38,577 nucleotides of DNA from Nitrospiraceae bacterium (GTDB taxonomy: Bacteria; Nitrospirota; Nitrospiria; Nitrospirales; Nitrospiraceae). Below, one piece after another: positions 1,932 to 34,354 of this stretch. The notes beneath the pieces were generated by a model. It did not search any database. It was not told the origin of the DNA and was given only the letters and a program-made list of their open reading frames with translations. The position numbers were made by a program, and so were the translations under genes. Location: contig DATFCE010000313.1 of assembly GCA_035253365.1 (NCBI GenBank), positions 1 through 38,577 of the forward strand, given 5' to 3'. The first letter of the stretch is position 1. Each line of letters starts with the position of its first letter.

Positions 1932-1969
1932 ACCGACGAGTTGATATAGCTGGGGCGAGAGGGATTGAG

Positions 1970-3520: not shown

Positions 3521-3565
3521 ATTTCAGACACTTTTGAACCCAGGGATAAGCCGGGGTACCGGGTG

Positions 3566-5558: not shown

Positions 5559-5588
5559 CGCGAGAAGAACCACGGGTGGGTTAGAGCC

Positions 5589-5942: not shown

Positions 5943-6061
5943 TTCCACTTCTATGATGATTGATCGTTCCCAGACCATGCGCGGCACTCTACGCGGCCAC
6001 CCCTTCTCACAAAACAAACACTCCGCTTGACCCTCATGGTCGCCATTCTCTACGGTGGACC

Positions 6062-6745: not shown

Positions 6746-6808
6746 CGCGAACCGAAAGCAGACGACACGCCGGACAATCTCTGCCAATCATGTTTGGAAG
6801 GAGCCATC

Positions 6809-11089: not shown

Positions 11090-12273
11090 GGGCGGTGCGG
11101 GGCATAGGTTGCAGAGAAAGCGCGGCCGTGAAGCTGCGCGATGGACGCGCGCATAAGGTCTACATCGATCTCGTGCGCCTCGAACCCGTCTCCGATCGCG
11201 CTTAACAGCGTGACGGTCAGCTCGCCGCCGAGATGCTCGCGGAATTCCGCCAAGCCGGTGAGCAATTCAGAATGCGCCAGGGCCTCATCCCACAACACCA
11301 GGCCGAGATTGTGTAACAGCCTCAGCACGTTCTCTCCCGCCGGACGCTCAAGAAAGCCGGCATTGATGGAGTAGAGCGTATCGAGCGCGACGCCGATTGC
11401 CACGGCCTCGCCATGCCGGAGACGGTAGCGAGTGAGGGACTCTAATTTGTGGGCAGCCCAGTGCCCGAAATCCAGCGGCCTGGCGCACCCGAACTCGAAC
11501 GGATCGCCCGAGCCGGCAATATGATCCAGATGAATCTCCGCGCAGCGCCTGATCAGAAACGACACGGTCTCCGGATCGCCCGCCTCAAGCAAGGGCGCCT
11601 GATCGACCATCCAGTCGAAGAACCGCGCATCGCGAATGAGCGCCGCCTTCACGGCTTCCGCCATTCCCGACACGCGGTCCCTCGGGCTTAATGTTTCGAG
11701 AAACCGCCGGTCATTCAGCACGGCGAACGGGGGAGAAAACGTGCCGAAGAAATTTTTTTTACCGAATGCATTCACGCCGTTTTTTACGCTTACGCCCGCA
11801 TCGTTCTGCGCAAGCACCGTGGTCGGAACACGGACGAGGCGAAGCCCCCGATGAGTAATCGCCGCGGCATAGCCCACCATGTCAAGAAGGGCCCCACCGC
11901 CTATGGCGACCACGCAGGCATGACGATCCATATTCCGGGCGTTCAGATCGGCATGGAGCCGGGCCACGAGGGTAGGGGCGTTCTTGGCCGCCTCCCCCCC
12001 TTCTATCACGATGGGCGCCCCTGCCAGATCCAATCGATCTCGATAAACGTCGGCGTAGCGTTGAATGTCCGCGCTCAGTGCCGGCCACGCCGAGGCCACT
12101 CCCCGATCAATGACGACACAGAGGCGATGCCGCCGTATCGGTTCGTTTCGCGAAATGACCGAGACCAGGCTGGGATTTGCGGAAGCAAACACCTCGGTCG
12201 TGAATACGACGGGGTACTCAAAGGGGACGGCAATCTTTTGCAGATGCAGGTCCATACCGCACCGTTTCAACAT
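11086..12273 (-). CDS. eboD: 3-dehydroquinate synthase-like sugar phosphate cyclase (EboD)
   Basis: DHQS-family nucleotide-binding motif VAIGGGALLDMVGYAAA. The track ORF reaches 12351, but that would overlap yjbQ. The ATG at 12273 shares its A with the yjbQ stop (TGATG). An alternative ATG is at 12255. Confidence 0.85.
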   Translation of the reverse strand: MLKRCGMDLHLQKIAVPFEYPVVFTTEVFASANPSLVSVISRNEPIRRHRLCVVIDRGVASAWPALSADIQRYADVYRDRLDLAGAPIVIEGGEAAKNAPTLVARLHADLNARNMDRHACVVAIGGGALLDMVGYAAAITHRGLRLVRVPTTVLAQNDAGVSVKNGVNAFGKKNFFGTFSPPFAVLNDRRFLETLSPRDRVSGMAEAVKAALIRDARFFDWMVDQAPLLEAGDPETVSFLIRRCAEIHLDHIAGSGDPFEFGCARPLDFGHWAAHKLESLTRYRLRHGEAVAIGVALDTLYSINAGFLERPAGENVLRLLHNLGLVLWDEALAHSELLTGLAEFREHLGGELTVTLLSAIGDGFEAHEIDVDLMRASIAQLHGRAFSATYAPHRP

Positions 12274-14805: not shown

Positions 14806-16563
14806 ATGCATTTGACGCCATCCTTATTGCTCACCACTACCGTGATAACTGTACTGATCGTTAACGGCTGCCAGACGTGGGGCGGCGGCGAGCCGGGTCA
14901 GGGCCCGGGAAGCGATCAATCGACGGACACGCAGCCTCGAATTTCAAATGGCCCGATCCCGGATTTGAAGAATTTGTCCTCCGCGATTCGGCCGTTACCA
15001 CCCGCAGGAATCGCCGCATATCCCAAAGAAGTGATGGATACGACCTACGCCCCGCCGTCCGGCAACGACATGGCGGTGAAACAGGGGGATAACCTGCAGG
15101 CCAAAATCGATGCGGCGCCGTGCGGTAGCAAAATAAAGTTGGATGCGGGCGCCACCTTTACCGGAGCGTTCGTGCTGAAGAACAAGGGCTGCTCCGCAGA
15201 GAAGCCGATCTATATCATGTCCGCCGATCTCGACCGACTTCCCTCCGAAGGTAAGCGGGTAAGTCCGAAAGACGCGACGCACATGCCGAAGATTCAAGCC
15301 GCCGGTGGGTTGGCTTTTTCCGCCGAGTTCGGAACGGGCTATTATTGGCTCGTCGGGTTGGAGATTCTCTCGACCGTCAATGACCGAAACAGCATTCCGG
15401 ACACGCTCATTGATTTCGGCGAGCAGCCCGATCCTAACGTGACCGCCTATCCCTCCAAGCAGGAGGATTTCCCTCATCATATCGTGATCGATCGGTGCTA
15501 CATCCATGGACAACCGCGCGGCAATCTCAAGCGTGGGGTGGCGCTCAACGGCACTTATCAGGCCATCATCAATTCCTACCTCAGCGAGATTCACGGCGAT
15601 GGCGTCGAATCCAAGGGGATTAACGGCTGGGCTGGCCCCGGGCCGTTCATGATTTACAACAATCATATCGAAGCGGCCGGCATCAATGTCTTCTTCGGCG
15701 GCGCCTCGACATGGATTGAGAACATCAATCCGAGCGACATCGTGATTGCCCGCAATCACATTACGAAAAACACCGCCTGGCGGCAAGGAAGTCCCAATTT
15801 CGCCGGCGTGGCCTGGACAGCCAAAAATCTGATCGAATTGAAGAATGCCAAGCGCGTGCTGCTGGACTCCAACGTGCTCGAGAATAGCTGGGTTCACGCT
15901 CAAGCGGGGCAGGCTGTCCTTTATTCCCCGCAAAACGATCAGGGCAACATGGTCTGGTCCACCGTCGAGGACGTGACGTTTCAGCGCAATCTGGTCCGGC
16001 ATACGGCGATGACGTTTCATGTGCTCGGCTGGGGCTGGCCCAATCAAACCAAACAATCCAAGCGGAAACTGAACCGCCATAATGTGTTCGACGATATCGA
16101 TTGGGTGAAATGGGGCGGGTTCAATCGGGCGCGGAACATCATGATGGACAGCGGCTCCGACAGCGATTCCTGGGAGCACAATACCTTCAACAACACGGGA
16201 TCCGAACGCGGAATTCTCACGGCGGATCACTGCCCGCATTCCAACCTGGTGTTCCGGGATAATATTATCTTCGAAGGTCGCGGAGTTCTCGCCAGCGGGT
16301 ATTCACCGGGCGGCACGTCCTTGGAGGCGTGCTTTCCCGGAAAGATCTGGGCGCACAACATTCTGATCGACGGGTCAAAAGGGAATTATCCCTCGGGGAA
16401 TTTTTTTCCTTCCAAGGTCGATCAAGTCGGGTTTACCGATTATAAGGCCGCCAACTTCAAACTTCTGCCCTCGAGCCCATACAAAGGCAAAGCGTCCGAC
16501 GGTACCGACCCCGGAGCCGACTACGACGAGGTGACGGCTGCGACGGAGGGCGTCATCGACTGA
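14806..16563 (+). CDS. right-handed parallel beta-helix lipoprotein (possible polysaccharide-active enzyme)
   Basis: 585 aa. Lipobox LIVNGC and SD GAGGAG. Repetitive N/G/I-rich beta-helix-like segments (IINSYLSEIHGDGVESKGINGW, IYNNHIEAAGINVFFGG, IARNHITKN). The fold assignment is inference. Confidence 0.6.
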   Translation: MHLTPSLLLTTTVITVLIVNGCQTWGGGEPGQGPGSDQSTDTQPRISNGPIPDLKNLSSAIRPLPPAGIAAYPKEVMDTTYAPPSGNDMAVKQGDNLQAKIDAAPCGSKIKLDAGATFTGAFVLKNKGCSAEKPIYIMSADLDRLPSEGKRVSPKDATHMPKIQAAGGLAFSAEFGTGYYWLVGLEILSTVNDRNSIPDTLIDFGEQPDPNVTAYPSKQEDFPHHIVIDRCYIHGQPRGNLKRGVALNGTYQAIINSYLSEIHGDGVESKGINGWAGPGPFMIYNNHIEAAGINVFFGGASTWIENINPSDIVIARNHITKNTAWRQGSPNFAGVAWTAKNLIELKNAKRVLLDSNVLENSWVHAQAGQAVLYSPQNDQGNMVWSTVEDVTFQRNLVRHTAMTFHVLGWGWPNQTKQSKRKLNRHNVFDDIDWVKWGGFNRARNIMMDSGSDSDSWEHNTFNNTGSERGILTADHCPHSNLVFRDNIIFEGRGVLASGYSPGGTSLEACFPGKIWAHNILIDGSKGNYPSGNFFPSKVDQVGFTDYKAANFKLLPSSPYKGKASDGTDPGADYDEVTAATEGVID

Positions 16564-16577: not shown

Positions 16578-16739
16578 CCCGTTCCCAAATGGCCTGGAAA
16601 CGCCGGCATCGTGCTTCTTCTCAGCCGTTGCCATTAGTTGATTTCCTCGTCTTGTAAAATAGGCCCATCGTCGGCATGATCCGCACACTGAGAGGCCTGA
16701 ATGCGCTGATGAAGCGGACACCTCTTGCCATCGGAAGCA

Positions 16740-17816
16740 ATGTCCTCACCGATCAGAAAAATTGTTAAATCGTTTCTGCAAGCGGCGCATCTCTTGGGGC
16801 CCGCAAGAAGGCTGATCGCGCTCAACGCTGATGGCCGACGCATCGTCATGTTGCTGGCCGATGCAATGTCCGCATGGTGGGGCAGGACCATCCGGTATCG
16901 GCACAAGTCTCCGTCGGTCAAGCAGGAATTGTCATCTCTCCCGTCTATCCATTCCGACGTCCACGACACTTCTTTACACATTCAGAATCCCAAGCTGCTA
17001 TCGTTGTATGAGCGATATCACGCCCGGACTCCTTATCTTCGAATCACCTCGCCGTTGTGGCATCACATTCCACATCAGATGGACCTGCGCAATTTCCGCG
17101 ACCATTGCGGGTATCTATGGACGACGGAAAGCGCGTTTCGCTATAAGACCGCCGCTCGCTACGTCAGCCGTTTCGATCAGTTCAATCTTCTCCGGCTATT
17201 CGGGGAAGACAACGCATTCGGGTGTCGGACCTACCGCTGGAATGGTGTGGACATCTCGCGCGATAAGCTCGATTCGATTACCGAAATTTACTATCTGATC
17301 AGAAGATTTGGCCTGAACGTCTGCGATCAGGTCAAGGTGCTCGACATAGGAGCCGGATATGGACGATTGGCTCACCGATTTACCACGCTGTTTAAGCGTG
17401 CTGAGTACTACTGTGTAGACGCCATTCCGATTTCTACATTCTTGTGCGAGTTCTATCTGAGATTCCGGAAGGCCAAGCGCACCCATGTCGTGCCCTTTGA
17501 TCAACTCGACACGCTGGCGCAGCATCGTTTCGATTTTGCGATCAATGTCCATTCATTTCCCGAGCAGACCAGCGACTCAATCGAATGCTGGATGTCGCTC
17601 CTGGATTCCCTCGACCTCAAGCGCTTGGTCGTGGTCGATCACACCGGCCGTTGGTTGACGATGGAACATCCCGATAACCATTGGTCATGCTATTTCCCCA
17701 TCCTCCAGAAACACGGCTGGTCGCTCATCGATGCGCGACCCAAATACGAAACCGTCTTCGGCCATGTTTTCGGGATCTATCCAGAAGCGGTGTACGCCCT
17801 CTTTGCCCGAGCGTGA
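16740..17816 (+). CDS. class I SAM-dependent methyltransferase (sugar O-methyltransferase-like)
   Basis: Motif I VLDIGAGYGRLAH. First ATG at 16740 (the track start at 16725 is TTG). Confidence 0.7.
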   Translation: MSSPIRKIVKSFLQAAHLLGPARRLIALNADGRRIVMLLADAMSAWWGRTIRYRHKSPSVKQELSSLPSIHSDVHDTSLHIQNPKLLSLYERYHARTPYLRITSPLWHHIPHQMDLRNFRDHCGYLWTTESAFRYKTAARYVSRFDQFNLLRLFGEDNAFGCRTYRWNGVDISRDKLDSITEIYYLIRRFGLNVCDQVKVLDIGAGYGRLAHRFTTLFKRAEYYCVDAIPISTFLCEFYLRFRKAKRTHVVPFDQLDTLAQHRFDFAINVHSFPEQTSDSIECWMSLLDSLDLKRLVVVDHTGRWLTMEHPDNHWSCYFPILQKHGWSLIDARPKYETVFGHVFGIYPEAVYALFARA

Positions 17817-18706: not shown

Positions 18707-18918
18707 AGCCTAACCCTAGAGCGGACGCCTTCCCGCAAGTCCTTATATCCATCAGGAAAGGGCCTCTTTCGGCTAAAGACCTGACTTACCTGATCTAGAA
18801 TTCCGGCTTTGATACTGTGACGACCGGCTATACGACGAGTCTTTCCTTGAAAAATTTGAAACTGCGGAGGGAAGCATGGTATGTGCTCGTAGGATATACA
18901 GTCAACGCCGGCCGGATA

Positions 18919-19737
18919 ATGGAGCCTAAACAATTGTGGAACAACCCATGCAGGTTGAGTCCGGCGGAGATCCATGTCTGGTGCAGTCCGCTCGATGCGC
19001 CATACACATGCATTCAGAAGATTTACAACACACTTTCCGATCTCGAAAAGCAACGAGCCGGAGCGCTCCGCTTGCCCGAGCACCGGAGGTCGTTCATTGC
19101 GGCGCACGGGCTGCTGCGAACCATCCTGGCCTTGTATCATCCCACGGATGCCGAGCGAATCGAGTTGGCATACGGACCGAACGGTAAGCCGCGGCTGGCG
19201 CCTGAGGGGCGTGTGAAGTTCAATCTTTCGCATTGCGAGGATTTGGCGCTCGTTGCCGTCAATCTGGACCGCGAGCTAGGAATAGATCTGGAGCGCATCC
19301 GTCCGATAGCCGACTTGGAGAATATCGCGAGAACCTTCTTTTCTCCGGGGGAATGTCGGGACCTGTTCTCCCTTGGTTTCGAGCAGCGCACCGCCGCGTT
19401 TTTCACGTGTTGGACCCGCAAAGAAGCGTACGTGAAAGCTACCGGAGCGGGACTCTCGTGTCCATTGGACAGTTTCCGTGTCACCGTGGTACCAGGGGAA
19501 AACCCGGGCTTTATCGGCATCGACGGATCCCCCTCGGAGGCAGTAAATTTCACGCTACACGATGTCCGACCATCCGCGTTTCATGCCGCAGCCTTGGCCG
19601 TCGAGCGCCGGAACTATGACAACACCAGCATCGTCTACCGAAAATTCGCGAGCATGATGGATTGCCTCGATCACATATCTCGCTGCACCGGCAGCAATGT
19701 GCTCAGTGAATCCTCCATACCTAATCGTCATTTTTGA
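18919..19737 (+). CDS. Sfp-type 4'-phosphopantetheinyl transferase
   Basis: Motifs GPNGKPRL, FNLSHCEDLALVAV, GIDLERI and WTRKEAYVKATG. ATG 18919 gives the usual short N-terminus before EIHVW (the track GTG is at 18817). Convergent with the end of the NRPS/PKS operon. Confidence 0.85.
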   Translation: MEPKQLWNNPCRLSPAEIHVWCSPLDAPYTCIQKIYNTLSDLEKQRAGALRLPEHRRSFIAAHGLLRTILALYHPTDAERIELAYGPNGKPRLAPEGRVKFNLSHCEDLALVAVNLDRELGIDLERIRPIADLENIARTFFSPGECRDLFSLGFEQRTAAFFTCWTRKEAYVKATGAGLSCPLDSFRVTVVPGENPGFIGIDGSPSEAVNFTLHDVRPSAFHAAALAVERRNYDNTSIVYRKFASMMDCLDHISRCTGSNVLSESSIPNRHF

Positions 19738-19832: not shown

Positions 19833-20378
19833 TTAGGACACAGCGGTGATTGAGAGCGCCTGCGCCATGCCGGCCACTGTCGGATTCTCGAAGAGCAGCC
19901 GGAGTGGGATATCGCGATTCCATTCCCGCCGCATGGCCCAAACCAGCTTAGTTGCAAGCAGTGAATGCCCACCAAGGTCGGCGAAGAAGTCGTCGAATAC
20001 GCCCACCGGTTGGTGATTGAGCACCTGCTCGAACAGACCGACCAGCCGGCGCTCGAGCTCGTTTCGCGGCGCGATCTTCTTAGGCGGATCCGCGCCGGCC
20101 GCCTTCAGCATGCTCAGCTTCGGTCTGTCCAGCTTACCGCCGGACGTTCGCGGCAACTGCGGCACTTTTACGATTTGCGACGGCACCATATACGCCGGCA
20201 GCCGGTAGTTGAGAAAAAGCTGCAAATCTTGTGGGTCCACGGAAGTTCCCGCTTTTTCCACCACGAACGCCACCAAGTGCTCCTGGGGAGTGTCCTGAGC
20301 GGCGCGCTTCTCGGCCCACGATCGCCATAATGCTTGGTGCGCCGGCGACATGCTCAGAATTTCGTCTGCGTTGCTCAT
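19833..20378 (-). CDS. stand-alone A-domain C-terminal fragment (A9-A10) fused to a PCP
   Basis: 181 aa. LVAFVV, A9 LPAYMVP, A10 SGGKLDR, then the carrier motif FFADLGGHSLLATKL. Its ATG overlaps the upstream TGA (ATGA). No domain follows the PCP. Confidence 0.85.
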   Translation of the reverse strand: MSNADEILSMSPAHQALWRSWAEKRAAQDTPQEHLVAFVVEKAGTSVDPQDLQLFLNYRLPAYMVPSQIVKVPQLPRTSGGKLDRPKLSMLKAAGADPPKKIAPRNELERRLVGLFEQVLNHQPVGVFDDFFADLGGHSLLATKLVWAMRREWNRDIPLRLLFENPTVAGMAQALSITAVS

Positions 20379-23300
20379 TTAACGGCCCTCACGACCGCCA
20401 TCGAATCGGCCCACCAATACTGACAGCCTGGAGGCGGGTTCAATCCACGCACTAACGAAACGGAGAAGCTTTGGAAATGCCGCAGCAACAGTCGTTGATG
20501 CTCACGCCCCAAAGAATCGATCTCGTTCGAATAATACGTAAAGATGCCGCCCGGCCGCAGTAGCTCCGCCGCACGCGGGAAGAAACCCGCAGCGAACGTC
20601 GGACTCTCCAATACCTCACGCGAGTACTCTTCTTCGCTGGTGGGATACGTATCGAAGAGAATGGCATCGAAGATCGATTCCGGCCCTTTCCAATCCTGCC
20701 AGCGAGAACCGACCACACGAATGTCGGCGTCCGGATAGCGCCCGGCCCACACTTTCAGCCGTTCCGCCACGTCATCGTTGCACTCGAGAATCGTATGCGA
20801 CCGGAGCCCCCGTTCTTGCAGAAAGGTCGCCGCAATTCCCATCCCGAACCCCACCTCGAGCACATCCCCGTGAGAGGCCGCCGCCACATCGGCCAGCGCG
20901 GCCATAAGCGGCCGTTCCCACGCTTGCATAACTTGTTGGCCGTCGATGACTAACTCGTCAGATGACAATTGTACCGGCTCCGTCTTCCACGCAGATCCTA
21001 TTTCCGGTCGCTCTCCCCCGCGCACCAACCTCCGTGATATCCGATCCAGAGCATGCAGATCGCATCCCAATTCATTCAGCGCCCGCCGGAGCAGCCAGTG
21101 ACGCTGGGTCTCCTGCGGCGTCGCCATAAAGTGGTCATCCGGCATGTGCAAATACAATTCAAACTGCGATGACTTCAGCCACATCGTCCGGCCTCCTACT
21201 TTCCCGTCCTGTGACTCAAGACGAAGTAAAAACTCCGCTTCCGGCACGGACATTCGGCGGAGCATGGTCAGCAGCCGGTGTTCTTCGGCGAGTCCTAGCC
21301 CGGCGACCGGAACAATGGCCACACCGGCGTCCTCGATCACCGCATGCGTGCGAAGGGCATTTTCAATTTCTTCGAGCTCGATTCGAAACCCACGCAGCTT
21401 CACTTGATGATCGGACCTCCCCAGAAATTCAAGCATGCCGTCTTCGCGGAACCGCGCGCGATCGCCGGTCATGTAGAGGCGCTCGCCCTGCCGGAACGGA
21501 TGAGCCACGAATCGCGCCGCCGTCGCCGCGTCATCCTTCAGGTAGCCGCGCGCCAACCCGGCGCCGCCGAGATACAAGTCGCCTTGCATGCCAATCGGCA
21601 CGGGCTCATGTGTGCGACTCAACACATAGGCTTCATAGCCGGGGACCGGTCGTCCGAGCGGTGGGTCTGTCGTCAGCGTGTCCGGCGGACAGGGAGCGTA
21701 GGTGGCGGTGATGGTTGCCTCCGCGGGGCCATACGCATTGATCACCGCCAGTTGCGGAAGCAAGTCTCGACAGCGATTCACCAGTGTCGCTGTCAGGCGT
21801 TCCCCGCCGCAGATCAATCTCCGCAGGGTGACGCATTCATGAATGTCGGGATGATCGAGCATCGTCGACAGACTCGAAGGAACCATGTCCAGCGCTGTTA
21901 CGCCCTGTGTGCGAACCAATGTTATCAGTTCGTCGAGATCCCGGCCGTGGCCGGCCGTCGTGACGATGGCCGCGCCACACGCGAACGCATTTAAGACCTC
22001 GGCCAATGCCGCGTCAAAACTAAACGAGTATTTCTGCAGTACCCGGTCCTGTGGAGTTAGCGCAAGGTCGTGCTGAAACCAACCGATCTGTTGGAGCAGG
22101 GCTCGCTGCTCCAGCATCACGCCCTTGGGAGTGCCCGTAGAACCTGACGTATACATGACGGCGGCCAGCGCATTGGCGTCATGGGGTATCGGTTCGGGCT
22201 TGCGCCGCCCTGGTGAAGCGTCGCGCCACCACGTATCCGAATCACTGAGCAGAACACAGGGATTCGTATCAGCCAATAACCTGTCCAAGCGTAATTGAGG
22301 CAATTCCGGATCGAGGTACACATAGGCCGCGCCGGCCTTCCAGGATGCGACTATGGCAACGACCGTCTCCCTCGAATCGGTCAGATGAATGCCGACGATT
22401 TCTTCCGGCTTCGCGCCCCGTTGTTGCAGCGCAACCGCGAGCTGATCCGTCAACAGGTCAAGTTCGCCGTAGGTCAGTACCTGATCCGGAGAGATGATGG
22501 ATATCTCCCCCGCATACCGGATCGCCGTGTCCCGGAACCAGTCGGCGAGTGTCGCGGCCGGCCATGTCCCCGCCTGACGCGCCCCACTCCAATCTTCGAT
22601 TAACAGCGCCCTTTCGTCCGCCGTCGTCAGTGGAAGTTCATCGATGGCCGTGTCCGGATGCGCCATCACTTCTGTAAGCAACCGTTCCCAGCGAGCGAGC
22701 AGCCGCTCAATAGTCGACTCTTCAAAGAGATCACGGCTGAACTCCAACCGTGTCATCACACCTTCTGCGCTATCGAAGAGGTCCACCGCCAAATCCACGT
22801 CGGTGCTTTGCTTTTGATATCCGATGTCATCGAGTACGGCGCTCGCTCGAGCAACCGGGTGGCGCGTCTGTAACAAATGAAACGTCACCTGATACAGGGC
22901 ATTCCGTTGCAAATTGCGCTGCGGCTGAAGGTCTTCCACCAACCGCGCAAAAGGCAACTGCTGGTTCGAATAGGCGCGCACCGTGACAGCCTTCACCGCG
23001 CCGAGAATCGTTCGGAACGAATCCGCGCCGTGCACAGGAATCCGAAGCACAATTGTATTCAAGAAAAATCCGATGAGGCTCTCAAGCTCTGATTCGTCCC
23101 GCCCGGCCACCGGCGTGCCGAGGACGAGATCTTCCTGCCCCGTATACCGGTGAAGTAACGCGGCGAAGCCCGCCAGGAGCACCATATAAAGAGTAAGCCC
23201 CTCGCGTTTCGCGAAGGTCTTCAGCGAACGGGTGAGTCGTTCATTCAGCAACTGGGAACGCGTCCCCGCGGCGCCTGTAAAACGTACCGACCTCGGACGA

Positions 23301-24064
23301 TCACCCGGTAATTGCAGGGCCGTCATGCCGGCCAGGTTCTCTCGCCAATGAGCCAACAGCGGCTCGATCTTGTCGCGCGTCAATTGCTCTCTTTGCCAGC
23401 ATGCATAATCCGAATACTGGATTGCGAGCGGCGGTAACGGCGCATGAGTGCCCGCAAGGGTTGCGGCATACGCGGTGTTGACATCGCGCATCAACACATC
23501 CATGGACCAGGCATCCATGATGATGTGATGAACGGTGACCAATTGAACCAATTGATCGGGAATCCGGAGTATCGCCATGCGGAACAACGGAGCTTTTGCC
23601 AAATCGAAAGGCGTATTCGCCTGCTCCGAAGCGATGGCTCTCGCTCTATCCCAACGAGCGCAGGGCTCACAATCGCAAAGATCGATTTCTGCCCATTCAA
23701 CCTCGTACGGAGGCTCTATGGCTTGCTCCGGACCATGTTCCCCCGTGATGAACCGTGTCCGCAATATTTCGTGTCGTTGGACGACCAGCGTCCACGCCTT
23801 CTTCCAGGCTTGTAAGTCCAGAGCACCCGGTAATGACAAGTGAAAATGCAGGTGATAGGCGGAGTTATCCGGATCCATCTGATGAAGGAACCACAACCGT
23901 TCCTGGCCGAATGACAACGGCGCGCGTTGCAATCCGCGCTTCGGAATCTTCAGCGGTCCCGTTCGGTCGCGAACCATCGACTCAAGCAGTCGCAATTTGT
24001 CCGCAGACAGGCCGGCCAAACGCTTCTCCAACGGATGTCCCGCGATTTCAGAAAAACGATTCAT
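20375..24064 (-). CDS. NRPS: C domain - A domain core (A1-A8) - GAMT-like methyltransferase; lacks A9/A10 and PCP
   Basis: C: [90 protein letters not shown]. C-terminus: [25 protein letters not shown]. Confidence 0.9.
   Translation of the reverse strand: [1229 protein letters not shown]
20378..20956 (-). other. guanidinoacetate N-methyltransferase (GAMT/RMT2)-like domain at the C-terminus of the NRPS
   Basis: The last ~193 aa align with mammalian GAMT recalled from memory, right to the final residues ([20 protein letters not shown] vs [20 protein letters not shown]). SAM motif I is VLEVGFGMG. Confidence 0.75.
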
Positions 24065-27000
24065 ACTCCCCCGTCAGCAGGAGCCTCGCTCGTCCCGAGC
24101 AACGACCGTGCCTCCTCATCCGACATTTGCTCGACCTTCTCCAGCAAATCGATCATGTCCGGCGCCACCAGATCGGTATTTTTCTCTTCGAGCACTGCCG
24201 CGAGTTCACGCACGGTGGGATGGTCGAACAAGACACGGACGCCGATATTGCGACCCAACGCATCACGCAGCCGCGAGATCACTTGAATGGCGAGCAATGA
24301 ATGCCCCCCCAGCTCGAAAAAGTTGTCGTTCGCTCCGACCCGGTCAAGACCGAGCAGGTCCCGCCAGACTTCGGCCACATAGTGTTCTTTTCCTTCTGCA
24401 GGCGCTTCAAAGTCGGTGGAGACCGAAGGTCGTGGATGGCTTGGGGAAGCCGGGCTTGCGGATTTTTCCCGATGGTTCCATACGGGGCTGGCCCACTGCT
24501 CCAGCCGGCGGCCCAGCTCGGATGTCGAGACGACAACCTGGTGCACGTCGTCCGCCGCAAGAATGCGCTCGAGCGCTTCCGTTCCCTCCTCCGGCAGAAT
24601 CACCGGATCGCTCTTCGCCTGTTCCAACGCGAGAGGATCCCCGTCGGGCATCCAACCATCCCAATTGATGCTGACCCATCGCGTCTGTCCGTTGGAGCAC
24701 TGCGTCGACACGAAGGCGTCCATGTATTGATTCGCCGCCGCGTACGCTGTAAATCCCAATCCTCCCAGCACCGCCGAAAGGGAGGACAGGCAACAGATGA
24801 AGTCAGGCGAGTGTCGCCGCGCCTGCTCCGCTATAATCCTTGTACCCTCGACCTTTGATAAGAAATGCGCCGTGCAACGGCCGGTATCGAGTTCCGACAA
24901 ACTGAGAAATGCGTCGGCTCGGGTGTAGCCGGCGCCGTGAATAATGCCGTCAAATCGGTGCCGGGTGAAAACATCCGCCATCGCCGCCCGGTCACCAACG
25001 TCCGCCGCTTCAATGGTCACGGCGGCGCCATGCGTTTCGATGGCGCGGATCTTGTGGATACGCGACCGTACCGGTTCTTCAATCACATCATCCCAGACCT
25101 CGCGCGCGGGCAACCCGCTGCGGCCGACCAGTACGATGTCCTGCGCACCCCGGCGGGCCAGGAACTCCGCGAAAAGCAAGCCGATCATCCCCAGTCCGCC
25201 GGTGATCAGATACGTGCCGGGATAGCGGCGATCGGGTGGAGCCGCCAACGCGACAGGCTCATACGCCAGGCGCCATCGCTGATGTCCTCGGTAGGCCACC
25301 ATCGTCGCCGCTTCGTCTTGCGCCGCTTCATCGATGAGATGCTGAGCCGCTTCCCCCGCCGGCGCCGGCGTTCGATCCTCCATGTCGACCACACGGCAGC
25401 GGACATGCGGATACTCTTGGCCCATGGTGAGCGCGGGTGCATACGCCATCGCCTGGTTGGCGGCCACCACATCTTTCGATAGGACCTTTTGCCCGCGCAC
25501 TGTCACGAACACGGCGTTCAACGGCGACGTCTTAAGTTCACCCGCCGCGGCCTGCAGCGTACGAAGCACGGAATAGAAGGCGTCGGCTCCCTGTTCCAGA
25601 TTCCACAAATGCAAAATACGCCGCGGGGGCGGATCGCCGACCGTCAACCGCCCCATGAGATCGCGCAACGCTTGAGCATCTTCCACCGGCGCCTCAAATT
25701 CGTGCGGAGCGACTTCCTTGAAGCTGCGGCCGGAGTTCACCCTCACGACATGCTGGCCCGCCGCGCGGAGTTGCTCGCAGATCGAATCCGTCAGTTCGCC
25801 GGCGGAACCAAGCACGAACCAGCGTTCCGGTGTGTCGGGATTCAATGCCGGGACGGGTTGGTCCCGCACCCATCGCGGCGTGTAGAACCATTCGTCCAGC
25901 GGCAGTCGCCCCGACGTCAACCGGTCGGGCATGATTTCTGTTTCGGGAGGGGCATCAATCCAGTAGCGCTTGCGGTCAAACGGATACGTCGGCAGACGCA
26001 TACGAGAACGCGATTCGCTCTCATAGAACGCCGTCCAGTTGATCGGCGTGCCTTCAATCCATAACCGTCCGAGCGTTTCCAGCAAGACACGCTCATCGCA
26101 AGCACGATTGAGCGGATGTCGCGCGCTTGACAAAACCTGATGAGAAGCCCGCTTCAAAGGATGTTGCCGTACCAAGCCGGCCAATGCCGTCCCGGGCCCC
26201 ACCTCCAGCAGGATAGTGCCCGGCTCATGCAGCAAATGGGTCAGGCCATCAGCGAAACGCACGGTGCTGCGCAGATGGGCACTCCAGTACGAGGGACTCT
26301 GCGCCTGCTCGGCGGTGATCCAATTGCCCGTCACGTTCGAGAGAAACCGAATGGTCGGTGCGTTGCGTGTAACGGCGGCGATGGCCTCTTCCAACGGTCT
26401 CCGCGCATCTTCCACGAGGCGCGAATGAAACGCGTGCGAGGTGTGCAGCCGCGTGACGGACACCCCTTGTGAACGCAGCTCTTGTTCCAGCATGGCGACC
26501 CGTTCGGCAAGTCCCGAGACCACGGAAAGACTCGGCGCGTTCACCGCGGCGAGATCAAGATCCGCGTGTAGCCAGGGCTGCAATTCATCCGCCGGTTTTC
26601 CGACCGCAAGCATCGCGCCCGGAGGCATGGCGTTGACCACCCGGCCTCGAACCGCCACAATCCGCAGCGCATCCTCCAGCGAGAAGACACCCGCGAGACA
26701 CGCGGCCACATACTCGCCGATGCTGTGGCCGATCATCGACGCAGGCCGCACGCCCCAATGCATCCATAAGCGCGCGTAGGCATAGCTGATCGCAAATACC
26801 GCCGGTTGTGTCACCCAGGTCTGCTGCAGCATTTCGGTCTGGGCGGGATCGTCATCGCTCGACGAAAAGAGCAGGGATTGAAGACCACATCCGAGTTGGG
26901 GAGCCAACATCGCGCAGCACTCGTCCAAGACCCGGCGAAACACGGGCTCGTTCTCGTACACGCCACGCGCCATGTTCAGATACTGCGCGCCTTGGCCTGG

Positions 27001-28599
27001 AAACAGAAAGGCAACGGAACGCGCATTGCCTTCACACATGGCGGAGATGACGTGTCGCGGATCCTTGCTCTTCAGTAGCCGTCCCGCTTCCGCGGTTTCC
27101 TTTGTATCGGCGACCAAATACCGCCGGTACGGCATCTCTTTTCGGCCCACCCGCAGCGTGTACGCGACATCGGCGAGCGACACATCCGGGTGCCGGGCAA
27201 GATGATCGCCAAGCCGCGCACTCATGTCATCCAACGGTGCGGCGCCACGTGCCGAAAACCCAATAATTTGGTAGGGGCGTGATGGGCCGCTCGCCTTCCT
27301 TTCGGGAGCCTCCTCGAGAAGGACATGCGCGTTCGTTCCGCCTATACCGAAAGAACTAACTCCTGCTCGACGCACCCGGCAGTGAGGTTCCCAATCCAGA
27401 AGAGCGACATTCACAAAGAACGGACTGTTCGCGATGTCGATCTTCGGGTTGGGCCGCTCGAAATACAGGCTTGGTGGAATCTGCTTATGCTCCAGGGATA
27501 GCACGCATTTGATTAAGCCTGCCGCGCCCGCCGCCGAATCCATGTGGCCGACGTTTGATTTCACGGAACCCAAGGCGCAATACTGCGTGCGCTTGGCCTT
27601 ACGATAGGCTTCGGTCAATGCTGAGAATTCGATCGGGTCGCCGAGCGGCGTGGCCGTGCCATGCGCTTCGAGCATGGTGATCGTTTCGGGATTGACGTTG
27701 GCCATCGACAGCGCCATCGCGATCACCTCCGCTTGCCCGCGGACACTGGGCGCGGTGTACCCGACCTTGGCCGATCCATCGTTATTCAAGCCATAACCCC
27801 GAATCACCGCGCGAATAGGGTCGCCGTCGGCTACCGCCTCCGACATCCGCTTCAACAGAACAATCGCCACCCCGTTTCCGCCCACCGTGCCCTTCGCACT
27901 CGCGTCGAATGAACGGCAGTGCCCGTCCGGCGAAGAGATGCCGCCTTCTTCGTAGACGTAGCCCCGCTTCTGAGGAATGCCAATGGTTGCGCCTCCCGCC
28001 AACGCCATGTCGCACTGGTAATCGAGAAGGTTTTGGCATGCCATTGAGATGGCAACCAATGACGTCGAGCATGCGGTCCCGACCGTGACCGCAGGTCCCC
28101 TCAATCCGAGTTTGTAGGCCACCCGGGTGCTCAAGTGATCCTTATCGTTACTGATCAAAATTTGAAAGTCGTTGACGACGCCGGCGAGCCGAGGATTGTT
28201 GTAAAGATTAAAGGCGTACGTGCTCATGGTCGTGCCGCCGAAAACGCCGATCAATCCGGGATAACCGTCCGGATTGTAGCCCCCATCCTCCAGGACTTCC
28301 CATGCGCATTCCAAGAACAAGCGCTGCTGCGGGTCCAGAATCTCCGCGTCGCGCGGATTGAGGCTGAAAAAGCCGGCGTCGAATAAATCGATGTCCGCGA
28401 CCATTCCATTCGCCCGGACGTAATTAGGTCGGTCGAGGTCTTGTGCGCGAACGCCGGCCTCCAACAACTCCTGGTCCGAAAAGAAGGTGATGCAATCCCG
28501 GCCCGACCGTAAGTTGGTCCAAAACTCATTCACATCCCGAGCTCCGGGGAATCGGCCGCTCAAGCCGATAATCGCGATGCTTTCGGTTCCTTCACTCAT
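24061..28599 (-). CDS. type I PKS module: KS-AT(malonyl-type)-KR-carrier protein
   Basis: KS: GTACSTSLVA, EAHGTATPLGDPIE, GSVKSNVGH. AT: FLFPGQGAQY, GHSIGEYVAA, HAFHS. KR: YLITGGLGMIGL and catalytic YAAAN. Carrier: FFELGGHSLLAIQ. No DH HxxxGxxxxP motif seen. ATGA overlaps at both ends. Confidence 0.95.
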   Translation of the reverse strand: MSEGTESIAIIGLSGRFPGARDVNEFWTNLRSGRDCITFFSDQELLEAGVRAQDLDRPNYVRANGMVADIDLFDAGFFSLNPRDAEILDPQQRLFLECAWEVLEDGGYNPDGYPGLIGVFGGTTMSTYAFNLYNNPRLAGVVNDFQILISNDKDHLSTRVAYKLGLRGPAVTVGTACSTSLVAISMACQNLLDYQCDMALAGGATIGIPQKRGYVYEEGGISSPDGHCRSFDASAKGTVGGNGVAIVLLKRMSEAVADGDPIRAVIRGYGLNNDGSAKVGYTAPSVRGQAEVIAMALSMANVNPETITMLEAHGTATPLGDPIEFSALTEAYRKAKRTQYCALGSVKSNVGHMDSAAGAAGLIKCVLSLEHKQIPPSLYFERPNPKIDIANSPFFVNVALLDWEPHCRVRRAGVSSFGIGGTNAHVLLEEAPERKASGPSRPYQIIGFSARGAAPLDDMSARLGDHLARHPDVSLADVAYTLRVGRKEMPYRRYLVADTKETAEAGRLLKSKDPRHVISAMCEGNARSVAFLFPGQGAQYLNMARGVYENEPVFRRVLDECCAMLAPQLGCGLQSLLFSSSDDDPAQTEMLQQTWVTQPAVFAISYAYARLWMHWGVRPASMIGHSIGEYVAACLAGVFSLEDALRIVAVRGRVVNAMPPGAMLAVGKPADELQPWLHADLDLAAVNAPSLSVVSGLAERVAMLEQELRSQGVSVTRLHTSHAFHSRLVEDARRPLEEAIAAVTRNAPTIRFLSNVTGNWITAEQAQSPSYWSAHLRSTVRFADGLTHLLHEPGTILLEVGPGTALAGLVRQHPLKRASHQVLSSARHPLNRACDERVLLETLGRLWIEGTPINWTAFYESESRSRMRLPTYPFDRKRYWIDAPPETEIMPDRLTSGRLPLDEWFYTPRWVRDQPVPALNPDTPERWFVLGSAGELTDSICEQLRAAGQHVVRVNSGRSFKEVAPHEFEAPVEDAQALRDLMGRLTVGDPPPRRILHLWNLEQGADAFYSVLRTLQAAAGELKTSPLNAVFVTVRGQKVLSKDVVAANQAMAYAPALTMGQEYPHVRCRVVDMEDRTPAPAGEAAQHLIDEAAQDEAATMVAYRGHQRWRLAYEPVALAAPPDRRYPGTYLITGGLGMIGLLFAEFLARRGAQDIVLVGRSGLPAREVWDDVIEEPVRSRIHKIRAIETHGAAVTIEAADVGDRAAMADVFTRHRFDGIIHGAGYTRADAFLSLSELDTGRCTAHFLSKVEGTRIIAEQARRHSPDFICCLSSLSAVLGGLGFTAYAAANQYMDAFVSTQCSNGQTRWVSINWDGWMPDGDPLALEQAKSDPVILPEEGTEALERILAADDVHQVVVSTSELGRRLEQWASPVWNHREKSASPASPSHPRPSVSTDFEAPAEGKEHYVAEVWRDLLGLDRVGANDNFFELGGHSLLAIQVISRLRDALGRNIGVRVLFDHPTVRELAAVLEEKNTDLVAPDMIDLLEKVEQMSDEEARSLLGTSEAPADGGV

Positions 28600-31500
28600 G
28601 CAGGATCTCCTCTGTGCGCCGCGGCTCGGGACCCCCGTCTGACGCGTGCAAGCCGTTGTTTGGCAGCCCGGTCTTCGAGATGCTCGAAGACCTCCTCAGT
28701 CGGCCTGGATTGCATGCAGCCATCCGACCCGAGGTGAACCGCCAGCGCTTCCACTGTGGGACACCGGAATAGGTCGACCATGGACAATGAACGCGCCAGC
28801 ACTTCCTGCAGGCGGCTGTGTACTTGCACCAACAGAAGGGAATGCCCGCCTAGGTCGAAGAAGTTGTCATGACGGCCGACGCGCTCGACCTGTAGCACTT
28901 CGCGCCAAATCGCGGCAATCACCTGCTCGACTTCGGACTGCGGCTCCGCGTAATTGTCGGCCGGACGCCAATCGGTGTCGACCGGCGCTTGTAAAGCCTT
29001 CCGGTCGATCTTACCGTTCGCGGTCATCGGGAAAGACGCCATGGGCACGATCACGGCCGGCACCAGGTAGTCTGGCAATTGTTGCTGAGCATAACGCCGG
29101 ACCTGTGCGGCGGCGGTTGTAGACGGTCCGTTCGGCATCGTGACGTAGCCGATGATTTGTTTCTCGCCGGTCTCGTCGCGCAACAGCACGCACGCTTCCC
29201 CGACCAAAGGATGCTGCCTGAGCGTGGATTCAATGTCCCCAAGCTCCACGCGGAAGCCGCGGATCTTGATCTGGCGATCCTGGCGTCCTAGAAATTCGGC
29301 GGTCCCATCCGCGCGATACCGCGCCCGATCGCCGGTTTTGTACAACCGCCGCTTGCTATTGTTGGGCGCGAACGGATGCGGAATGAATCGTTCATTCGTC
29401 AATTGGACGTCATTAAGATAGCCTTGCGCGACGCCTTCGCCTCCGATATACAGTTCGCCGGCGACTCCGGTGGGAACAATCTGCCGTTCGCGATCCAAGA
29501 TAAACAGTTCGCTGTTGGCGATGGGTCGCCCGATCGGCACGGGACCCTCGATGCGGTCGCCATGTTTCATGCGATGGCAAGCCGCAAAGGTGGTCGTCTC
29601 GGTCGGACCGTATCCGTTGATCACCACGCATCCGGGTAATTCGTCAAGTACGGTCTGGCAATGCGAAGGTGACAACACATCACCGCCCGCGAGCAACTGG
29701 CGCACGCCCCAGAGTGAGCCGAGCTGGCTTTCCACCATATTGTGAAACAGGCCGGCGGTCAGCCACACGGTTGTGACGCCGCTGCGCTCGATAAAAGAGC
29801 CAAGCTCTTCGAGCGAGGGCATCCCGGGCGGAAACACTTCGAGGCAAGCGCCATTTAACAAAGCTCCCCAGATCTCGAACGTCGACGCATCGAATTGCAG
29901 CGGGGCGAAACACAGAAGCTTTTCAGTCGGGCCGAATTCACAGTAATCGGTGTTGCGCACAAGCCGGACGACGTTGCGCTGGGTCACGCAGACGCCTTTC
30001 GGCTTACCCGTTGATCCCGAGGTGTACAGAATATAGGCCAGTGAGTCGGGCGTTGCGACCGTCTCGAGATTCGAGCCGTCGCCAGCCGCTTCACCGACAT
30101 CCACGACGGCGCACTGTAGCGCTTTCGCAAGACTGTCCGCCGCCTCGCGAGAATCGCCACGCGTGATGATGACGTTCGGACCGGCGTCCTTCGCCAGCGC
30201 GAGAAGCCGGGCTTGTGGATACGCGGGATCCAACGGCAGATACGCTCCGCCGGCCTTGATGGTGGCCAGCACCGCGAGTATTTGGTCGGCTGACCGCGGG
30301 ATACTAATTCCCACCGCCTGCCCCGGCGAAACCCGGAGTTGGCGCAAGACCTGCGCCAGCCGGTTTGCCCGTCCGTTCAACTCCGCGTACGACCATTCGC
30401 CCTGGAGGCTGTTCACCGCAACAGAACGCGCGTGCGCCGCGGCCTGTTCTTCAAACAGCTCCTTAATCGTCTTGTCTTTTGGGTATTGGCGCGCCGACCG
30501 GTTGAACTCCACGAGGAGCTTATGCCGTTCCTGAGCAGTGAGGATCGGCAATCGCGACACCGGCAGATCGGGGTTCGATAAAATGCTCTGGAGCAGGACG
30601 AACCAATGACCCGCCATGCGCCTGATTGTCTCGTCGTCGAAAAGGTCCGTGCTGTACTCGAAGATGCACGACAGTCCGGTGTCGGTTTCCGCCAGATATA
30701 GCGTCAGATCAAACTTCGACGTGCCGTAATGGATATCGCCGGTGGCGGCCGCACATGCCTGATAAGCGGGCGATGCCGCGATGTCGCCGGCGCGGGCGAT
30801 ACTATTTTGGAGGACGAACATGACTTGAAAAAGCGGATTACGGCTGAGGTCGCGCTGGGGATGCAGCTCTTCCACCAGCTTTTCGAACGGCAGGTCCTGA
30901 TTGGAATAGGCTTCTAACGCCGTTTCCCGAACGCGGCGCACCACTTCCACGAACGTCGGGGCGCCGCCCAGATTCGTCCGCATCACGAGGGTGTTCACGA
31001 AAAATCCGATCAGCGGCTCGAGTTCCGGCCGGCTGCGATTCGCAATCGGGGTGCCCACGACGATGTCCTCTTGCCCCGTGTACCGCATCATCAACGTCTG
31101 AAACGCCGCCAGTAGCGTCATAAACAGCGTGGCGCCTTCGCGCTGGCTCAGGCGGCGCATCCCCTCGATGATTGGGGGAGGCATGTCGGCAGACAGATAC
31201 CCGCCGCGATAACTCGGCAGACTGGGACGCGGGCGATCGGTGGGCAGATCCAATGCCGGCAGTCCACTGAGATGCTTGCGCCAGTACTGAAGCTGGTCGT
31301 CAAGTTTTTCACCTGACAGCCGCTCTCTTTGCAACACCGCAAACTCGGGATATTGGATCGGCAACTCCGCCAAGGGCGAAGGTCGTCCATCCGCGAACGC
31401 ATCGTAGAGAACCGCGATCTCTCGTGCCAGCACGTCCATAGACCACCCATCCGACACGATGTGATGCATGGTCAGCAAAAAGACGTACGCCGCCTCCTGC

Positions 31501-31883
31501 ATCCGCACGAGGGTACCGCGCAATAAGGGACCGGTGGACAGATCAAAGAGCTGCCGCGAATCCGCGTCTGCTATCCTCTCCAATTCCGGTCCTCGCTCTG
31601 ATTCCGGCAAAGGCGACAAGTCGACGGTCGGAATCGGAACCTCCATCGAGTTCGACACGAACTGCACCGGCTGACCATCCACCGCATGAAACGTCGTTCG
31701 TAACGCCTCATGCCGCCGGATGATTTCCGCGAAGGCCTCCCGCCATGCGGATTCGTCTACCGCAAATGGTAACGGGATGTCGATCTGAAGGTTGTAGAGC
31801 GGGCTATCGGGCGCGACTCGATTGAGGAACCACAGTCGCTCCTGGCCGAATGACAATGGGTACACGCTGTGGTCAATGGTCAC
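28596..31883 (-). CDS. NRPS module C-A-PCP (hand-derived specificity code DAFWLGGTFK, Val-like)
   Basis: C: SFGQERLWFL, HHIVSDGWS. A: YTSGSTGKPKGV, FDASTFEIW, NGYGPTETT, GELYIGGEGVAQGYL, YKTGDRA, GRQDRQIKIRGFRVELGDIE, LPDYLVP, NGKIDRKAL. PCP: FFDLGGHSLLLVQ. Confidence 0.95.
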   Translation of the reverse strand: MTIDHSVYPLSFGQERLWFLNRVAPDSPLYNLQIDIPLPFAVDESAWREAFAEIIRRHEALRTTFHAVDGQPVQFVSNSMEVPIPTVDLSPLPESERGPELERIADADSRQLFDLSTGPLLRGTLVRMQEAAYVFLLTMHHIVSDGWSMDVLAREIAVLYDAFADGRPSPLAELPIQYPEFAVLQRERLSGEKLDDQLQYWRKHLSGLPALDLPTDRPRPSLPSYRGGYLSADMPPPIIEGMRRLSQREGATLFMTLLAAFQTLMMRYTGQEDIVVGTPIANRSRPELEPLIGFFVNTLVMRTNLGGAPTFVEVVRRVRETALEAYSNQDLPFEKLVEELHPQRDLSRNPLFQVMFVLQNSIARAGDIAASPAYQACAAATGDIHYGTSKFDLTLYLAETDTGLSCIFEYSTDLFDDETIRRMAGHWFVLLQSILSNPDLPVSRLPILTAQERHKLLVEFNRSARQYPKDKTIKELFEEQAAAHARSVAVNSLQGEWSYAELNGRANRLAQVLRQLRVSPGQAVGISIPRSADQILAVLATIKAGGAYLPLDPAYPQARLLALAKDAGPNVIITRGDSREAADSLAKALQCAVVDVGEAAGDGSNLETVATPDSLAYILYTSGSTGKPKGVCVTQRNVVRLVRNTDYCEFGPTEKLLCFAPLQFDASTFEIWGALLNGACLEVFPPGMPSLEELGSFIERSGVTTVWLTAGLFHNMVESQLGSLWGVRQLLAGGDVLSPSHCQTVLDELPGCVVINGYGPTETTTFAACHRMKHGDRIEGPVPIGRPIANSELFILDRERQIVPTGVAGELYIGGEGVAQGYLNDVQLTNERFIPHPFAPNNSKRRLYKTGDRARYRADGTAEFLGRQDRQIKIRGFRVELGDIESTLRQHPLVGEACVLLRDETGEKQIIGYVTMPNGPSTTAAAQVRRYAQQQLPDYLVPAVIVPMASFPMTANGKIDRKALQAPVDTDWRPADNYAEPQSEVEQVIAAIWREVLQVERVGRHDNFFDLGGHSLLLVQVHSRLQEVLARSLSMVDLFRCPTVEALAVHLGSDGCMQSRPTEEVFEHLEDRAAKQRLARVRRGSRAAAHRGDPA

Positions 31884-34216: not shown

Positions 34217-34354
34217 GATGCCTCCAAGCCTGAAGCGGAGTCGGCCAGTCAATTTTCCGTGGAATGCCGTTTGAGGCTTCCGCGAAACTGAGGATTGTAG
34301 ACCTGTGGTCCGACCAGTGCAGTTGAGCTATGCCATTTCCTGGAAGGAAACCTG

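Follow-up and report, generated by a model that had tools for sequence, protein, structure and literature searches.

Analysis of a 38,577-nucleotide stretch of DNA from a Nitrospiraceae bacterium (assembly GCA_035253365.1, contig DATFCE010000313.1, positions 1 to 38,577; hereafter the window) revealed a module of the non-ribosomal peptide synthetase (NRPS) type whose adenylation (A) domain is divided between two adjacent genes on the minus strand. The first gene product, which we have designated protein 1 (1229 amino acids; 20375..24064), comprised a condensation (C) domain, the A core with motifs A1-A8, a helical linker and a methyltransferase module resembling guanidinoacetate N-methyltransferase (GAMT), after which the protein stopped. 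The second open reading frame, ORF2 (181 amino acids; 19833..20378), encoded the rest of the A C-terminal subdomain and a peptidyl carrier protein (PCP). We consider it probable that the two proteins form a two-polypeptide A domain together with a GAMT-family methyltransferase that acts on a guanidino nitrogen of a tethered arginine-like residue. Both reading frames, identified by ORF calling and Pfam, lay exactly where an earlier sequence-only reading of the window had placed them.

Division of the A domain between two proteins

Pfam placed a Condensation domain (PF00668, E 1.2e-98) at residues 47-488 of protein 1 (22601..23926, minus strand, as for all features of the two genes) and the adenylation core (AMP-binding, PF00501, E 1e-71) at residues 511-842 (21539..22534). 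The first half of the A C-terminal subdomain followed at residues 843-924 (21293..21538), as delimited by its motifs and by the end of the TIGR01733 match (NCBIfam amino-acid-adenylation; residues 531-913), which reached A8 and the helix after it. This half contained A7 (YMTGD), A8 (LRGFRIELEEIE; residues 890-901, 21362..21397), a helix and the strand AGVAIV (21311..21328). ORF2 began with a conserved N-terminal helix (residues 4-26; 20301..20369), followed by the strand HLVAFVV (20259..20279), A9 (LPAYMVP; 20181..20201), A10 with its catalytic lysine (GGKLDR; 20124..20141) and the PCP (residues 111-175; 19854..20048), which carried the motif FFADLGGHSLLA and the serine in GGHSLLA. The corresponding Pfam matches on ORF2 were AMP-binding_C at residues 31-82, covering profile positions 25-76 only, and PP-binding at residues 111-175. 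The distribution of A8 on one protein and A9, A10 and the PCP on the next was as first proposed, and the core motifs were intact on both halves, as were the S-adenosylmethionine (SAM) and catalytic motifs of the methyltransferase.

At the junction of the two genes (20375..20390), the minus strand read GTC GTG AGG GCC GTT AAA TGA, such that the ORF2 ATG (20378..20376) overlapped the TGA of protein 1 (20377..20375). A TAA (20379..20381) lay immediately before this ATG in the ORF2 frame, and a Shine-Dalgarno-like GAGGG (20386..20390) was located 7 nt ahead of it. The overlap and the TAA had both been noted in the sequence-only reading, as had ATGA overlaps at the other two inter-protein junctions of the assembly line (28596..28599 and 24061..24064), and each could be read in the window. 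A promoter and terminator scan of the protein 1/ORF2 junction found no coding-strand signal, consistent with co-transcription.

Eighty loci were obtained from a genome scan in which each GTDB species was represented by one genome. Fifty were two-part loci of the window type, ten were three-part loci in which the methyltransferase was a separate gene, two were cut by a contig end, and the remaining 18 had the methyltransferase only or another arrangement. A homologue of ORF2 was found directly downstream in 50/50, 10/10, 2/2 and 0/18 of these, respectively.

The insert is a GAMT-family methyltransferase

The resemblance to GAMT, noted in the sequence-only reading, was borne out by profile, sequence and fold searches, all of which gave GAMT or PF27704 and not the canonical NRPS methyltransferase. 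When residues 907-1229 of protein 1 were compared with all PDB sequences using phmmer, rat GAMT (1xcj, E 2.3e-29) and human GAMT (3orh, E 1.3e-27) were matched, and besides GAMT there was no match below E 0.08. The precomputed Pfam annotation of protein 1 contained PF27704 (GuanidinoAc_N-MeTrfase); the Pfam copy used for our domain scan does not include this model and gave weak, sub-threshold matches to generic methyltransferases (Methyltransf_25). An AlphaFold2 (AF2) model of residues 843-1229, based on a 121-sequence alignment, had a predicted local distance difference test score (pLDDT) of 86.2, rising above 90 across the methyltransferase. The top five Foldseek matches in PDB were all human or rat GAMT (best E 1.8e-18, target TM-score 0.77-0.81, root-mean-square deviation 2.6-3.4 Å), with 33-34% identity over approximately 230 columns. 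The solved structure of an interrupted A domain, TioS AMA4 (5wmm), ranked sixth, with a TM-score of 0.15-0.31 and 18% identity. By sequence, family annotation and fold, the insert is a member of the GAMT family.

The homology extended over the whole GAMT chain (envelope 7-232 of 235 residues). Protein 1 ended within approximately three residues of the GAMT end, in agreement with the earlier statement that it stops where GAMT stops. Methyltransferase motif I (VLEVGFGMGI; 20834..20863), the equivalents of Glu45 (in QAWERPLM; 20903..20926) and Asp134 (in ILFDTYP; 20642..20662), and the sequence PPPGCQYWW near the C-terminus (20411..20437) were all identified. Motif I, the acidic residue of beta2 and the Glu45 and Asp134 equivalents were invariant or nearly so across the 121 homologues. 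Asp134, whose numbering was checked on the phmmer alignment, is cited as the catalytic base of GAMT (Komoto 2004, as cited in PMC12842229).

Approximately 135 amino acids between A8 and the GAMT-like region had been left unassigned. This region can now be divided into a linker of approximately 35 amino acids on the A-domain side and an extension of approximately 60 amino acids on the methyltransferase side. The linker (residues 925-958; 21191..21292) is variable, consists of two helices according to homologue alignments and the AF2 model, and was present only in A-attached forms; in three-part loci it was kept at the C-terminus of protein 1. It is proposed to be a docking element. The extension (residues 959-1020), seen in the AF2 model and alignments as a beta-hairpin and a long helix, was common to hundreds of free-standing bacterial PF27704 proteins of approximately 270 amino acids and therefore belongs to the methyltransferase module. 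Together with the GAMT-homologous core (residues 1021-1229; 20378..21004; phmmer and alignment), it makes up a module of approximately 270 amino acids (residues 959-1229; 20378..21190), delimited by phmmer, PF27704, alignments and AF2/Foldseek. As these boundaries are drawn from the homologue alignments and the model, the inserted unit corresponds to a complete bacterial methyltransferase module. It shares the fold, the Glu45 and Asp134 pair and the chain end with GAMT but differs from it in the N-terminal hairpin and helix, in sitting within an assembly line and in its likely substrate, a carrier-bound arginine side chain as opposed to free guanidinoacetate.

Specificity codes and the predicted target of methylation

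The specificity code of the window A domain was DAADIGAIT on protein 1, completed by a lysine on ORF2 to give DAADIGAITK. This matched the arginine consensus D-[AV]-E-D-[IVL]-G-A-[VI]-[TD]-K (2025 survey, PMC12283262) at 9/10 positions. The codes of the two-part loci followed the pattern D[AV][EAS][DNE][IVL]G[AS][IV]T, whereas those of all ten three-part loci read DS[AVT]LIAEVW, matching the histidine code DSALIAEVWK published in the same survey (PMC12283262). The A domain would therefore be predicted to select an arginine-like residue in two-part loci, including the window, and histidine in three-part loci. A literature search with the window code returned nothing relevant, and one with the codes of its relatives turned up only the histidine code DSALIAEVWK. 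The methyltransferase pocket differed along the same line. Nearly all arginine-type loci had E45, D134 and CxY as in GAMT, whereas histidine-type loci had Q, H and x[TIS] at these positions. Brasilonema and Scytonema had Q, D and NxN, and locus L054 had Q, D and CxN.

AGAT-like amidinotransferase genes adjoined the GAMT-like methyltransferase in six loci, a bacterial pairing of both creatine-pathway enzyme families. Three of these were in NRPS contexts (L003, of which L039 is a duplicate, 11086..12220; L029, 4032..4769; L046, 4044..4781) and three had a free-standing methyltransferase (L073, 5223..5966; L005, 6615..7344; L061, 4734..5504). In L003, the amidinotransferase gene lay between both halves of the split A domain. 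The A codes of L029, L045 and L046 had a glycine at position 278 (DVEGIGAVQ), which might fit homoarginine.

The architecture could be as described with the GAMT-like domain methylating the backbone alpha-amine, and we regard this as unlikely but worth weighing. N-methylation of the backbone is the commonest role of methyltransferases embedded between A8 and A9 (PMC8341866), GAMT itself methylates a nitrogen on the glycine C-alpha of guanidinoacetate, and the published split A domain, that of Crz, makes N-methylglycine. However, the pocket covaries with the class of side chain selected by the A domain, a change that a backbone enzyme would not need, and the guanidino-binding Glu45 and Asp134 pair of GAMT is kept precisely in the arginine-type loci. 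In L019 and L003, a canonical class I methyltransferase has been added to the same A domain and would be redundant if the GAMT-like domain already served the backbone; di-interrupted domains are known to pair a side-chain methyltransferase with a backbone one (PMC8341866). Given the codes, the covarying pocket, the second methyltransferase of L019 and L003 and the amidinotransferase genes, methylation of a side-chain guanidino or imidazole nitrogen is favoured over that of the backbone, and we infer from the sequences that such a nitrogen is the target.

It is also conceivable, though rather improbable, that methylation occurs off-line, on the free amino acid or the released product, with attachment serving mainly as a scaffold for both A halves. 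The module of approximately 270 amino acids also exists as a free-standing protein, in some loci outside NRPS clusters; it has no covalent attachment in three-part loci; and in two proteins it follows a complete A-PCP (L074, P0118). On the other hand, in known interrupted A domains it is the aminoacyl thioester on the carrier that is methylated (PMC8341866), a methyltransferase gene that always lies exactly between the A halves suggests a function tied to the loading step, and the pocket of the arginine-type A domains matches the code for unmethylated arginine. Methylation of a PCP-tethered residue is accordingly preferred here.

Conservation of the split

The stop codon lay right after the methyltransferase in 50/50 two-part loci. 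The gap to ORF2 in these loci was -4 nt in 11, +1 nt (TGAnATG) in 16, which included every Nitrospira locus, and 5 to 157 nt in 23. Among the 60 junctions of two-part and three-part loci taken together, ORF2 lay in relative frame 0, 1 or 2 in 8, 24 and 28 cases, respectively, and the stop codons were TGA (33), TAA (18) and TAG (9). Carriers included the finished chromosome of Ca. Nitrospira defluvii and isolates of Massilia, Pseudoduganella, Dokdonia and Hyunsoonleella, as well as Nostoc, Brasilonema, Scytonema, many Acidobacteriota, Planctomycetota and Myxococcota. The arrangement was kept at 38-67% identity across at least eight phyla, the closest relative being a Bryobacterales metagenome-assembled genome (67% identity) in which protein 1 was also 1229 amino acids long and also ended in ATGA; by this relationship, an acidobacterial origin of the window would be probable. 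The ATGA overlaps had previously been taken as a sign of design; the split is indeed a conserved design, but ATGA itself is not conserved and is one of several ways to couple the two genes.

Contiguous homologues were not found. A query spanning the junction (103 amino acids of the methyltransferase C-terminus and 91 of the ORF2 N-terminus) revealed no fused form among 5.8 billion protein clusters: it returned 131 proteins with a maximum coverage of 53%, none of which had PF27704 followed by A or PCP domains. A profile that included A-core columns was also run against a representative library, where the top 150 matches were giant multimodular NRPSs and had no bearing on fused forms. The inspected proteins with AMP-binding and PF27704 all terminated at ...C.YWWADSM.V.KA[VI][KR], and the methyltransferase module was C-terminal in every fusion seen. 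In metagenomic homologues, an A9/A10-PCP reading frame came right after the stop in 3/4 contexts, with gaps of 8, 31 and 23 nt; in the fourth, L003, the amidinotransferase gene intervened between the methyltransferase stop and the ORF2 homologue. From this comparison of sequences it is concluded that the stop codon at the methyltransferase end is conserved and under selection.

A decaying module, in which a mobile methyltransferase gene has pseudogenised the NRPS, is very improbable on these data. There is no in-line release domain after the ORF2 PCP, as such a reading would expect, but the core motifs are intact on both halves, the arrangement persists over the phylogenetic range given above, a free-standing thioesterase and a phosphopantetheinyl transferase (PPTase) are present, and the analogous Crz split is active. 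The possibility that a sequencing or assembly frameshift has cut what is really one single-chain interrupted A domain is practically negligible: the window is a metagenome contig (ENA ERZ27257137 k141_2460625) and an indel of 1-2 nt could yield a 4-nt overlap, but a TAA directly precedes the ATG in the ORF2 frame, the stop occupies the same position in 60 independent genomes, including a finished chromosome and isolates, spacers vary, all three frames (the eight in-frame junctions having an intervening stop) and three stop codons are used, and the fused form is missing from the protein clusters searched. The frameshift, readthrough and pseudogene readings were rejected on these comparative data.

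In Ca. Nitrospira defluvii (FP929003.1; L016, 1414..12333), the locus encoded a conserved hybrid line, in which a protein of 1907 amino acids with FAAL-like, ACP, C, A(1-8) and methyltransferase domains was followed by ORF2 (214 amino acids) and then by KS-AT-KR-ACP. The split module with a TGAnATG junction was found in 16 loci, nearly all from Nitrospira genomes, which suggests that a lipo-(methyl)arginine polyketide is widespread among nitrite oxidisers.

Proposed working of the split module

The module would be the last of a small NRPS-PKS-NRPS line (PKS, polyketide synthase) that joins valine, a ketoreduced malonate unit and an arginine-like residue. Protein 1 would supply the C domain, the entire N-terminal A core and the subdomain's first half, with the linker leading into the chain-ending methyltransferase. 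ORF2, probably translationally coupled through its Shine-Dalgarno sequence and the ATGA overlap, would start with the amphipathic N-terminal helix and contribute the strand lacking on protein 1, along with A9, the catalytic lysine of A10 and the PCP. Both proteins would have to associate, probably via the linker helices, the ORF2 N-terminal helix and strand pairing within the subdomain, and these are the candidate docking elements. Their association would rebuild an active A domain, as expected by analogy with the Crz split, which would load the amino acid onto the ORF2 PCP. With the A10 lysine encoded by ORF2, both proteins should be needed for adenylation. The methyltransferase would then act on a guanidino nitrogen of the tethered residue and not on the backbone amine. 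RMT2, the yeast arginine delta-N-methyltransferase, is related to GAMT; by homology with both enzymes, the chain-proximal guanidino nitrogen would be the likeliest atom to be methylated, presumably while the residue is held on the PCP.

Several observations weigh against this scheme. An AF2 prediction of the concatenated halves (protein 1 residues approximately 855-1229 joined to ORF2), made from a single sequence, had a pLDDT of 33 and a predicted TM-score (pTM) of 0.19 and was unusable. The window code has an alanine at position 239 where the arginine consensus has glutamate, and specificity codes were extracted by motif-anchored alignment without a trained predictor. A literature search found no known natural product with side-chain N-methyl-arginine or N-methyl-histidine that could be linked to such a module. 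Free-standing homologues in non-NRPS contexts indicate that the family is not limited to carrier-bound substrates, and all methyltransferases so far characterised between A8 and A9 act on the backbone nitrogen or a side-chain oxygen. The members of the split-domain family described here are known from sequence and predicted structure alone.

Three-gene form and other architectures

In the ten three-part loci, the first chain ended after the linker helices, the methyltransferase was a separate gene of approximately 265 amino acids, and ORF2 came next. These loci were from Bacteroidota, some Pyrinomonadaceae and Aridibacter. In them ORF2 ran on into further modules, as in Dokdonia (A9/A10-PCP-PCP-C), where the three genes of the isolate Dokdonia pacifica DSM 25597 (L076) were located at 3388..6342, 6352..7149 and from 7149 onward. 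The ORF2 N-terminal helix motif R[IL]xxLSxxQRxLLxLRL was kept in both the two-part and the three-part forms.

Two loci encoded di-interrupted split A domains, L019 (7186..9054) and L003 (12269 onward). Here ORF2 comprised the N-terminal helix, an LVAYVV strand, a canonical class I methyltransferase (Methyltransf_12/25/11), A9/A10 and the PCP, such that one A domain was both split and interrupted by two unrelated methyltransferases. In Streptomyces sp. YS-3 (L074, 4699..7458) and in P0118, the methyltransferase module was C-terminal to a complete A-PCP (or PCP). The module was also found beside complete stand-alone A domains in Actinoplanes and Micromonospora. The Actinoplanes locus L058 was considered as a three-part locus and rejected: its stand-alone A domain is complete and not split, and the methyltransferase gene that follows is a separate one. 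In L063 and L087, the methyltransferase was preceded by long open frames with no Pfam domains, which were treated as non-coding GC-rich frames.

In a rough neighbour-joining tree, which had no support values and is weak evidence, the methyltransferases of three-part loci formed their own deep clade, and free-standing and two-part ones were interleaved. The simplest and likely history would be that a whole free-standing methyltransferase gene was inserted into an A-domain gene; later, in most lineages, loss of the upstream stop would have joined the A core to the methyltransferase, with the downstream stop being retained throughout.

Comparison with known interrupted and split A domains

Interrupted A domains have been classified into seven families with six types of methyltransferase (M) domain, all on a single chain and all acting on the backbone nitrogen or a side-chain oxygen or sulfur (Lundy, Mori & Garneau-Tsodikova 2020, PMC8341866). 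The statement in the sequence-only reading that known interrupted A domains are single polypeptides is outdated, as the Crz1/Crz2 system of corallorazine is split and biochemically validated (Dreckmann et al. 2024, RSC Chem Biol 5:970, PMC11342130). In this system the A domain is divided right after its embedded methyltransferase. Without Crz2, the Crz1.2 A domain was inactive with glycine, whereas a 1:1 mixture of both proteins was nearly quantitative, and the authors called the split A domain 'unique' and its description the first experimental report (PMC11342130).

The window and Crz1/Crz2 share the order of a methyltransferase after A8, a stop codon, and A9/A10 followed by a carrier domain on the next reading frame. 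By its published description, the Crz methyltransferase is a canonical type I backbone N-methyltransferase of approximately 420 amino acids in a glycine-activating domain, in contrast to the GAMT-family module of approximately 270 amino acids with an arginine-type A domain found here. In Crz2, A9 and A10 both fall among the first 65 residues, whereas ORF2 additionally has a conserved helix at its N-terminus and the LVAFVV strand, which suggests that the cut here lies one strand earlier than in Crz. Furthermore, the Crz split was called unique, whereas here the split was present in every two-part and three-part locus examined, with a three-gene form in addition.

The window also shares with interrupted A domains a class I SAM methyltransferase in the A8-A9 region, the order A1-A8, methyltransferase and A9-A10, and the existence of di-interrupted versions (L019, L003). 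It differs from them in the stop after the methyltransferase, present both here and in each of the 60 two-part and three-part loci, and in its GAMT fold, which separates it from types II-VI by description and from TioS 5wmm by fold. In the published a8-a9 type, the insertion follows the L(V/A/I)(A/G)(Y/F) strand (PMC8341866), whereas here the insertion precedes the strand, HLVAFVV being on ORF2 downstream of it. The predicted chemistry, side-chain N-methylation, also differs. Guanidinoacetate was not mentioned in PMC8341866, and a full-text literature search found no paper tying GAMT-type methyltransferases to NRPSs or interrupted A domains, and nothing relevant on methylarginine in connection with A domains. 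A GAMT-fold insert in combination with a split A domain thus appears undescribed, and the earlier claim to this effect still holds, given that the Crz methyltransferase is of canonical type I. What is new here is the M-domain family, the shifted insertion point and the split in every two-part and three-part locus examined; the chemistry is probably new.

A wider reading, which is a real possibility although we stop short of favouring it, is that this methyltransferase constitutes a seventh M type and the first for side-chain N-methylation (arginine guanidino, histidine imidazole). It would form a self-contained gene cassette that allows no extension at its C-terminus, so that each recipient A domain would be an obligate two- or three-protein heteromer held together by strand complementation and docking helices.

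Gene neighbourhood of the split module

The minus-strand operon ran in the order S8 peptidase (32669..34252), free-standing thioesterase (31873..32664), first NRPS module (NRPS1), PKS, protein 1 and ORF2. By Pfam, NRPS1 was a C-A-PCP protein of 1095 amino acids (28596..31883), the A code of which, read by eye, was DAFWLGGTFK and valine-like. The PKS was a KS-AT-KR-ACP module of 1512 amino acids (24061..28599), which shares its ATGA overlap with protein 1. An Sfp-type PPTase was encoded on the plus strand (18817..19737), convergent with ORF2. An S8 subtilase followed by a free-standing thioesterase ahead of NRPS genes was also seen in the distant locus L003 (3085..7120), which hints at a conserved accessory pair, for example in release or in prodrug or self-resistance processing.

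An MTS-type methyltransferase of 363 amino acids (16725..17816) lay between the PPTase and a 585-amino-acid ORF (14806..16563, plus strand); the latter and a 261-amino-acid ORF (5960..6745, plus strand) had no Pfam match. Between 9168 and 12351 on the minus strand, the window encoded a DHQ-synthase-like protein (421 amino acids), a weakly xylose-isomerase-like TIM barrel (411 amino acids) and a UbiA prenyltransferase (263 amino acids), with a YjbQ gene nearby in the source contig; these may belong to a separate small pathway. At the window edge (17..2674, plus strand), the three subunits of a 2-oxoacid:ferredoxin oxidoreductase (POR_N/PFOR_II, TPP_enzyme_C, POR gamma) were encoded and appear unrelated to the NRPS.

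Implications

Interrupted A domains are a main natural route to methylated non-ribosomal peptides and a template for engineering. None of the six M types in the published classification is side-chain N-methylating; the at least 60 relatives described here add a GAMT-fold type, the pocket of which tracks arginine versus histidine selection. They also move the split A domain from one 'unique' case to a rule that held in every two-part and three-part locus found across at least eight phyla, and provide many natural examples of sites for cutting an A domain and reassembling it in trans, with candidate docking elements. Massilia, Pseudoduganella, Dokdonia, Hyunsoonleella and Ca. Nitrospira defluvii are among the carriers that can be cultivated or have finished genomes, so that chemistry and interface alike are directly testable. 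If the reading as a seventh M type is true, the split would offer a natural, portable split site for NRPS engineering, and there would be a large unexplored set of N-methyl-arginine and N-methyl-histidine metabolites in Nitrospira, Acidobacteriota, Burkholderiales, Cyanobacteria and marine Bacteroidota.

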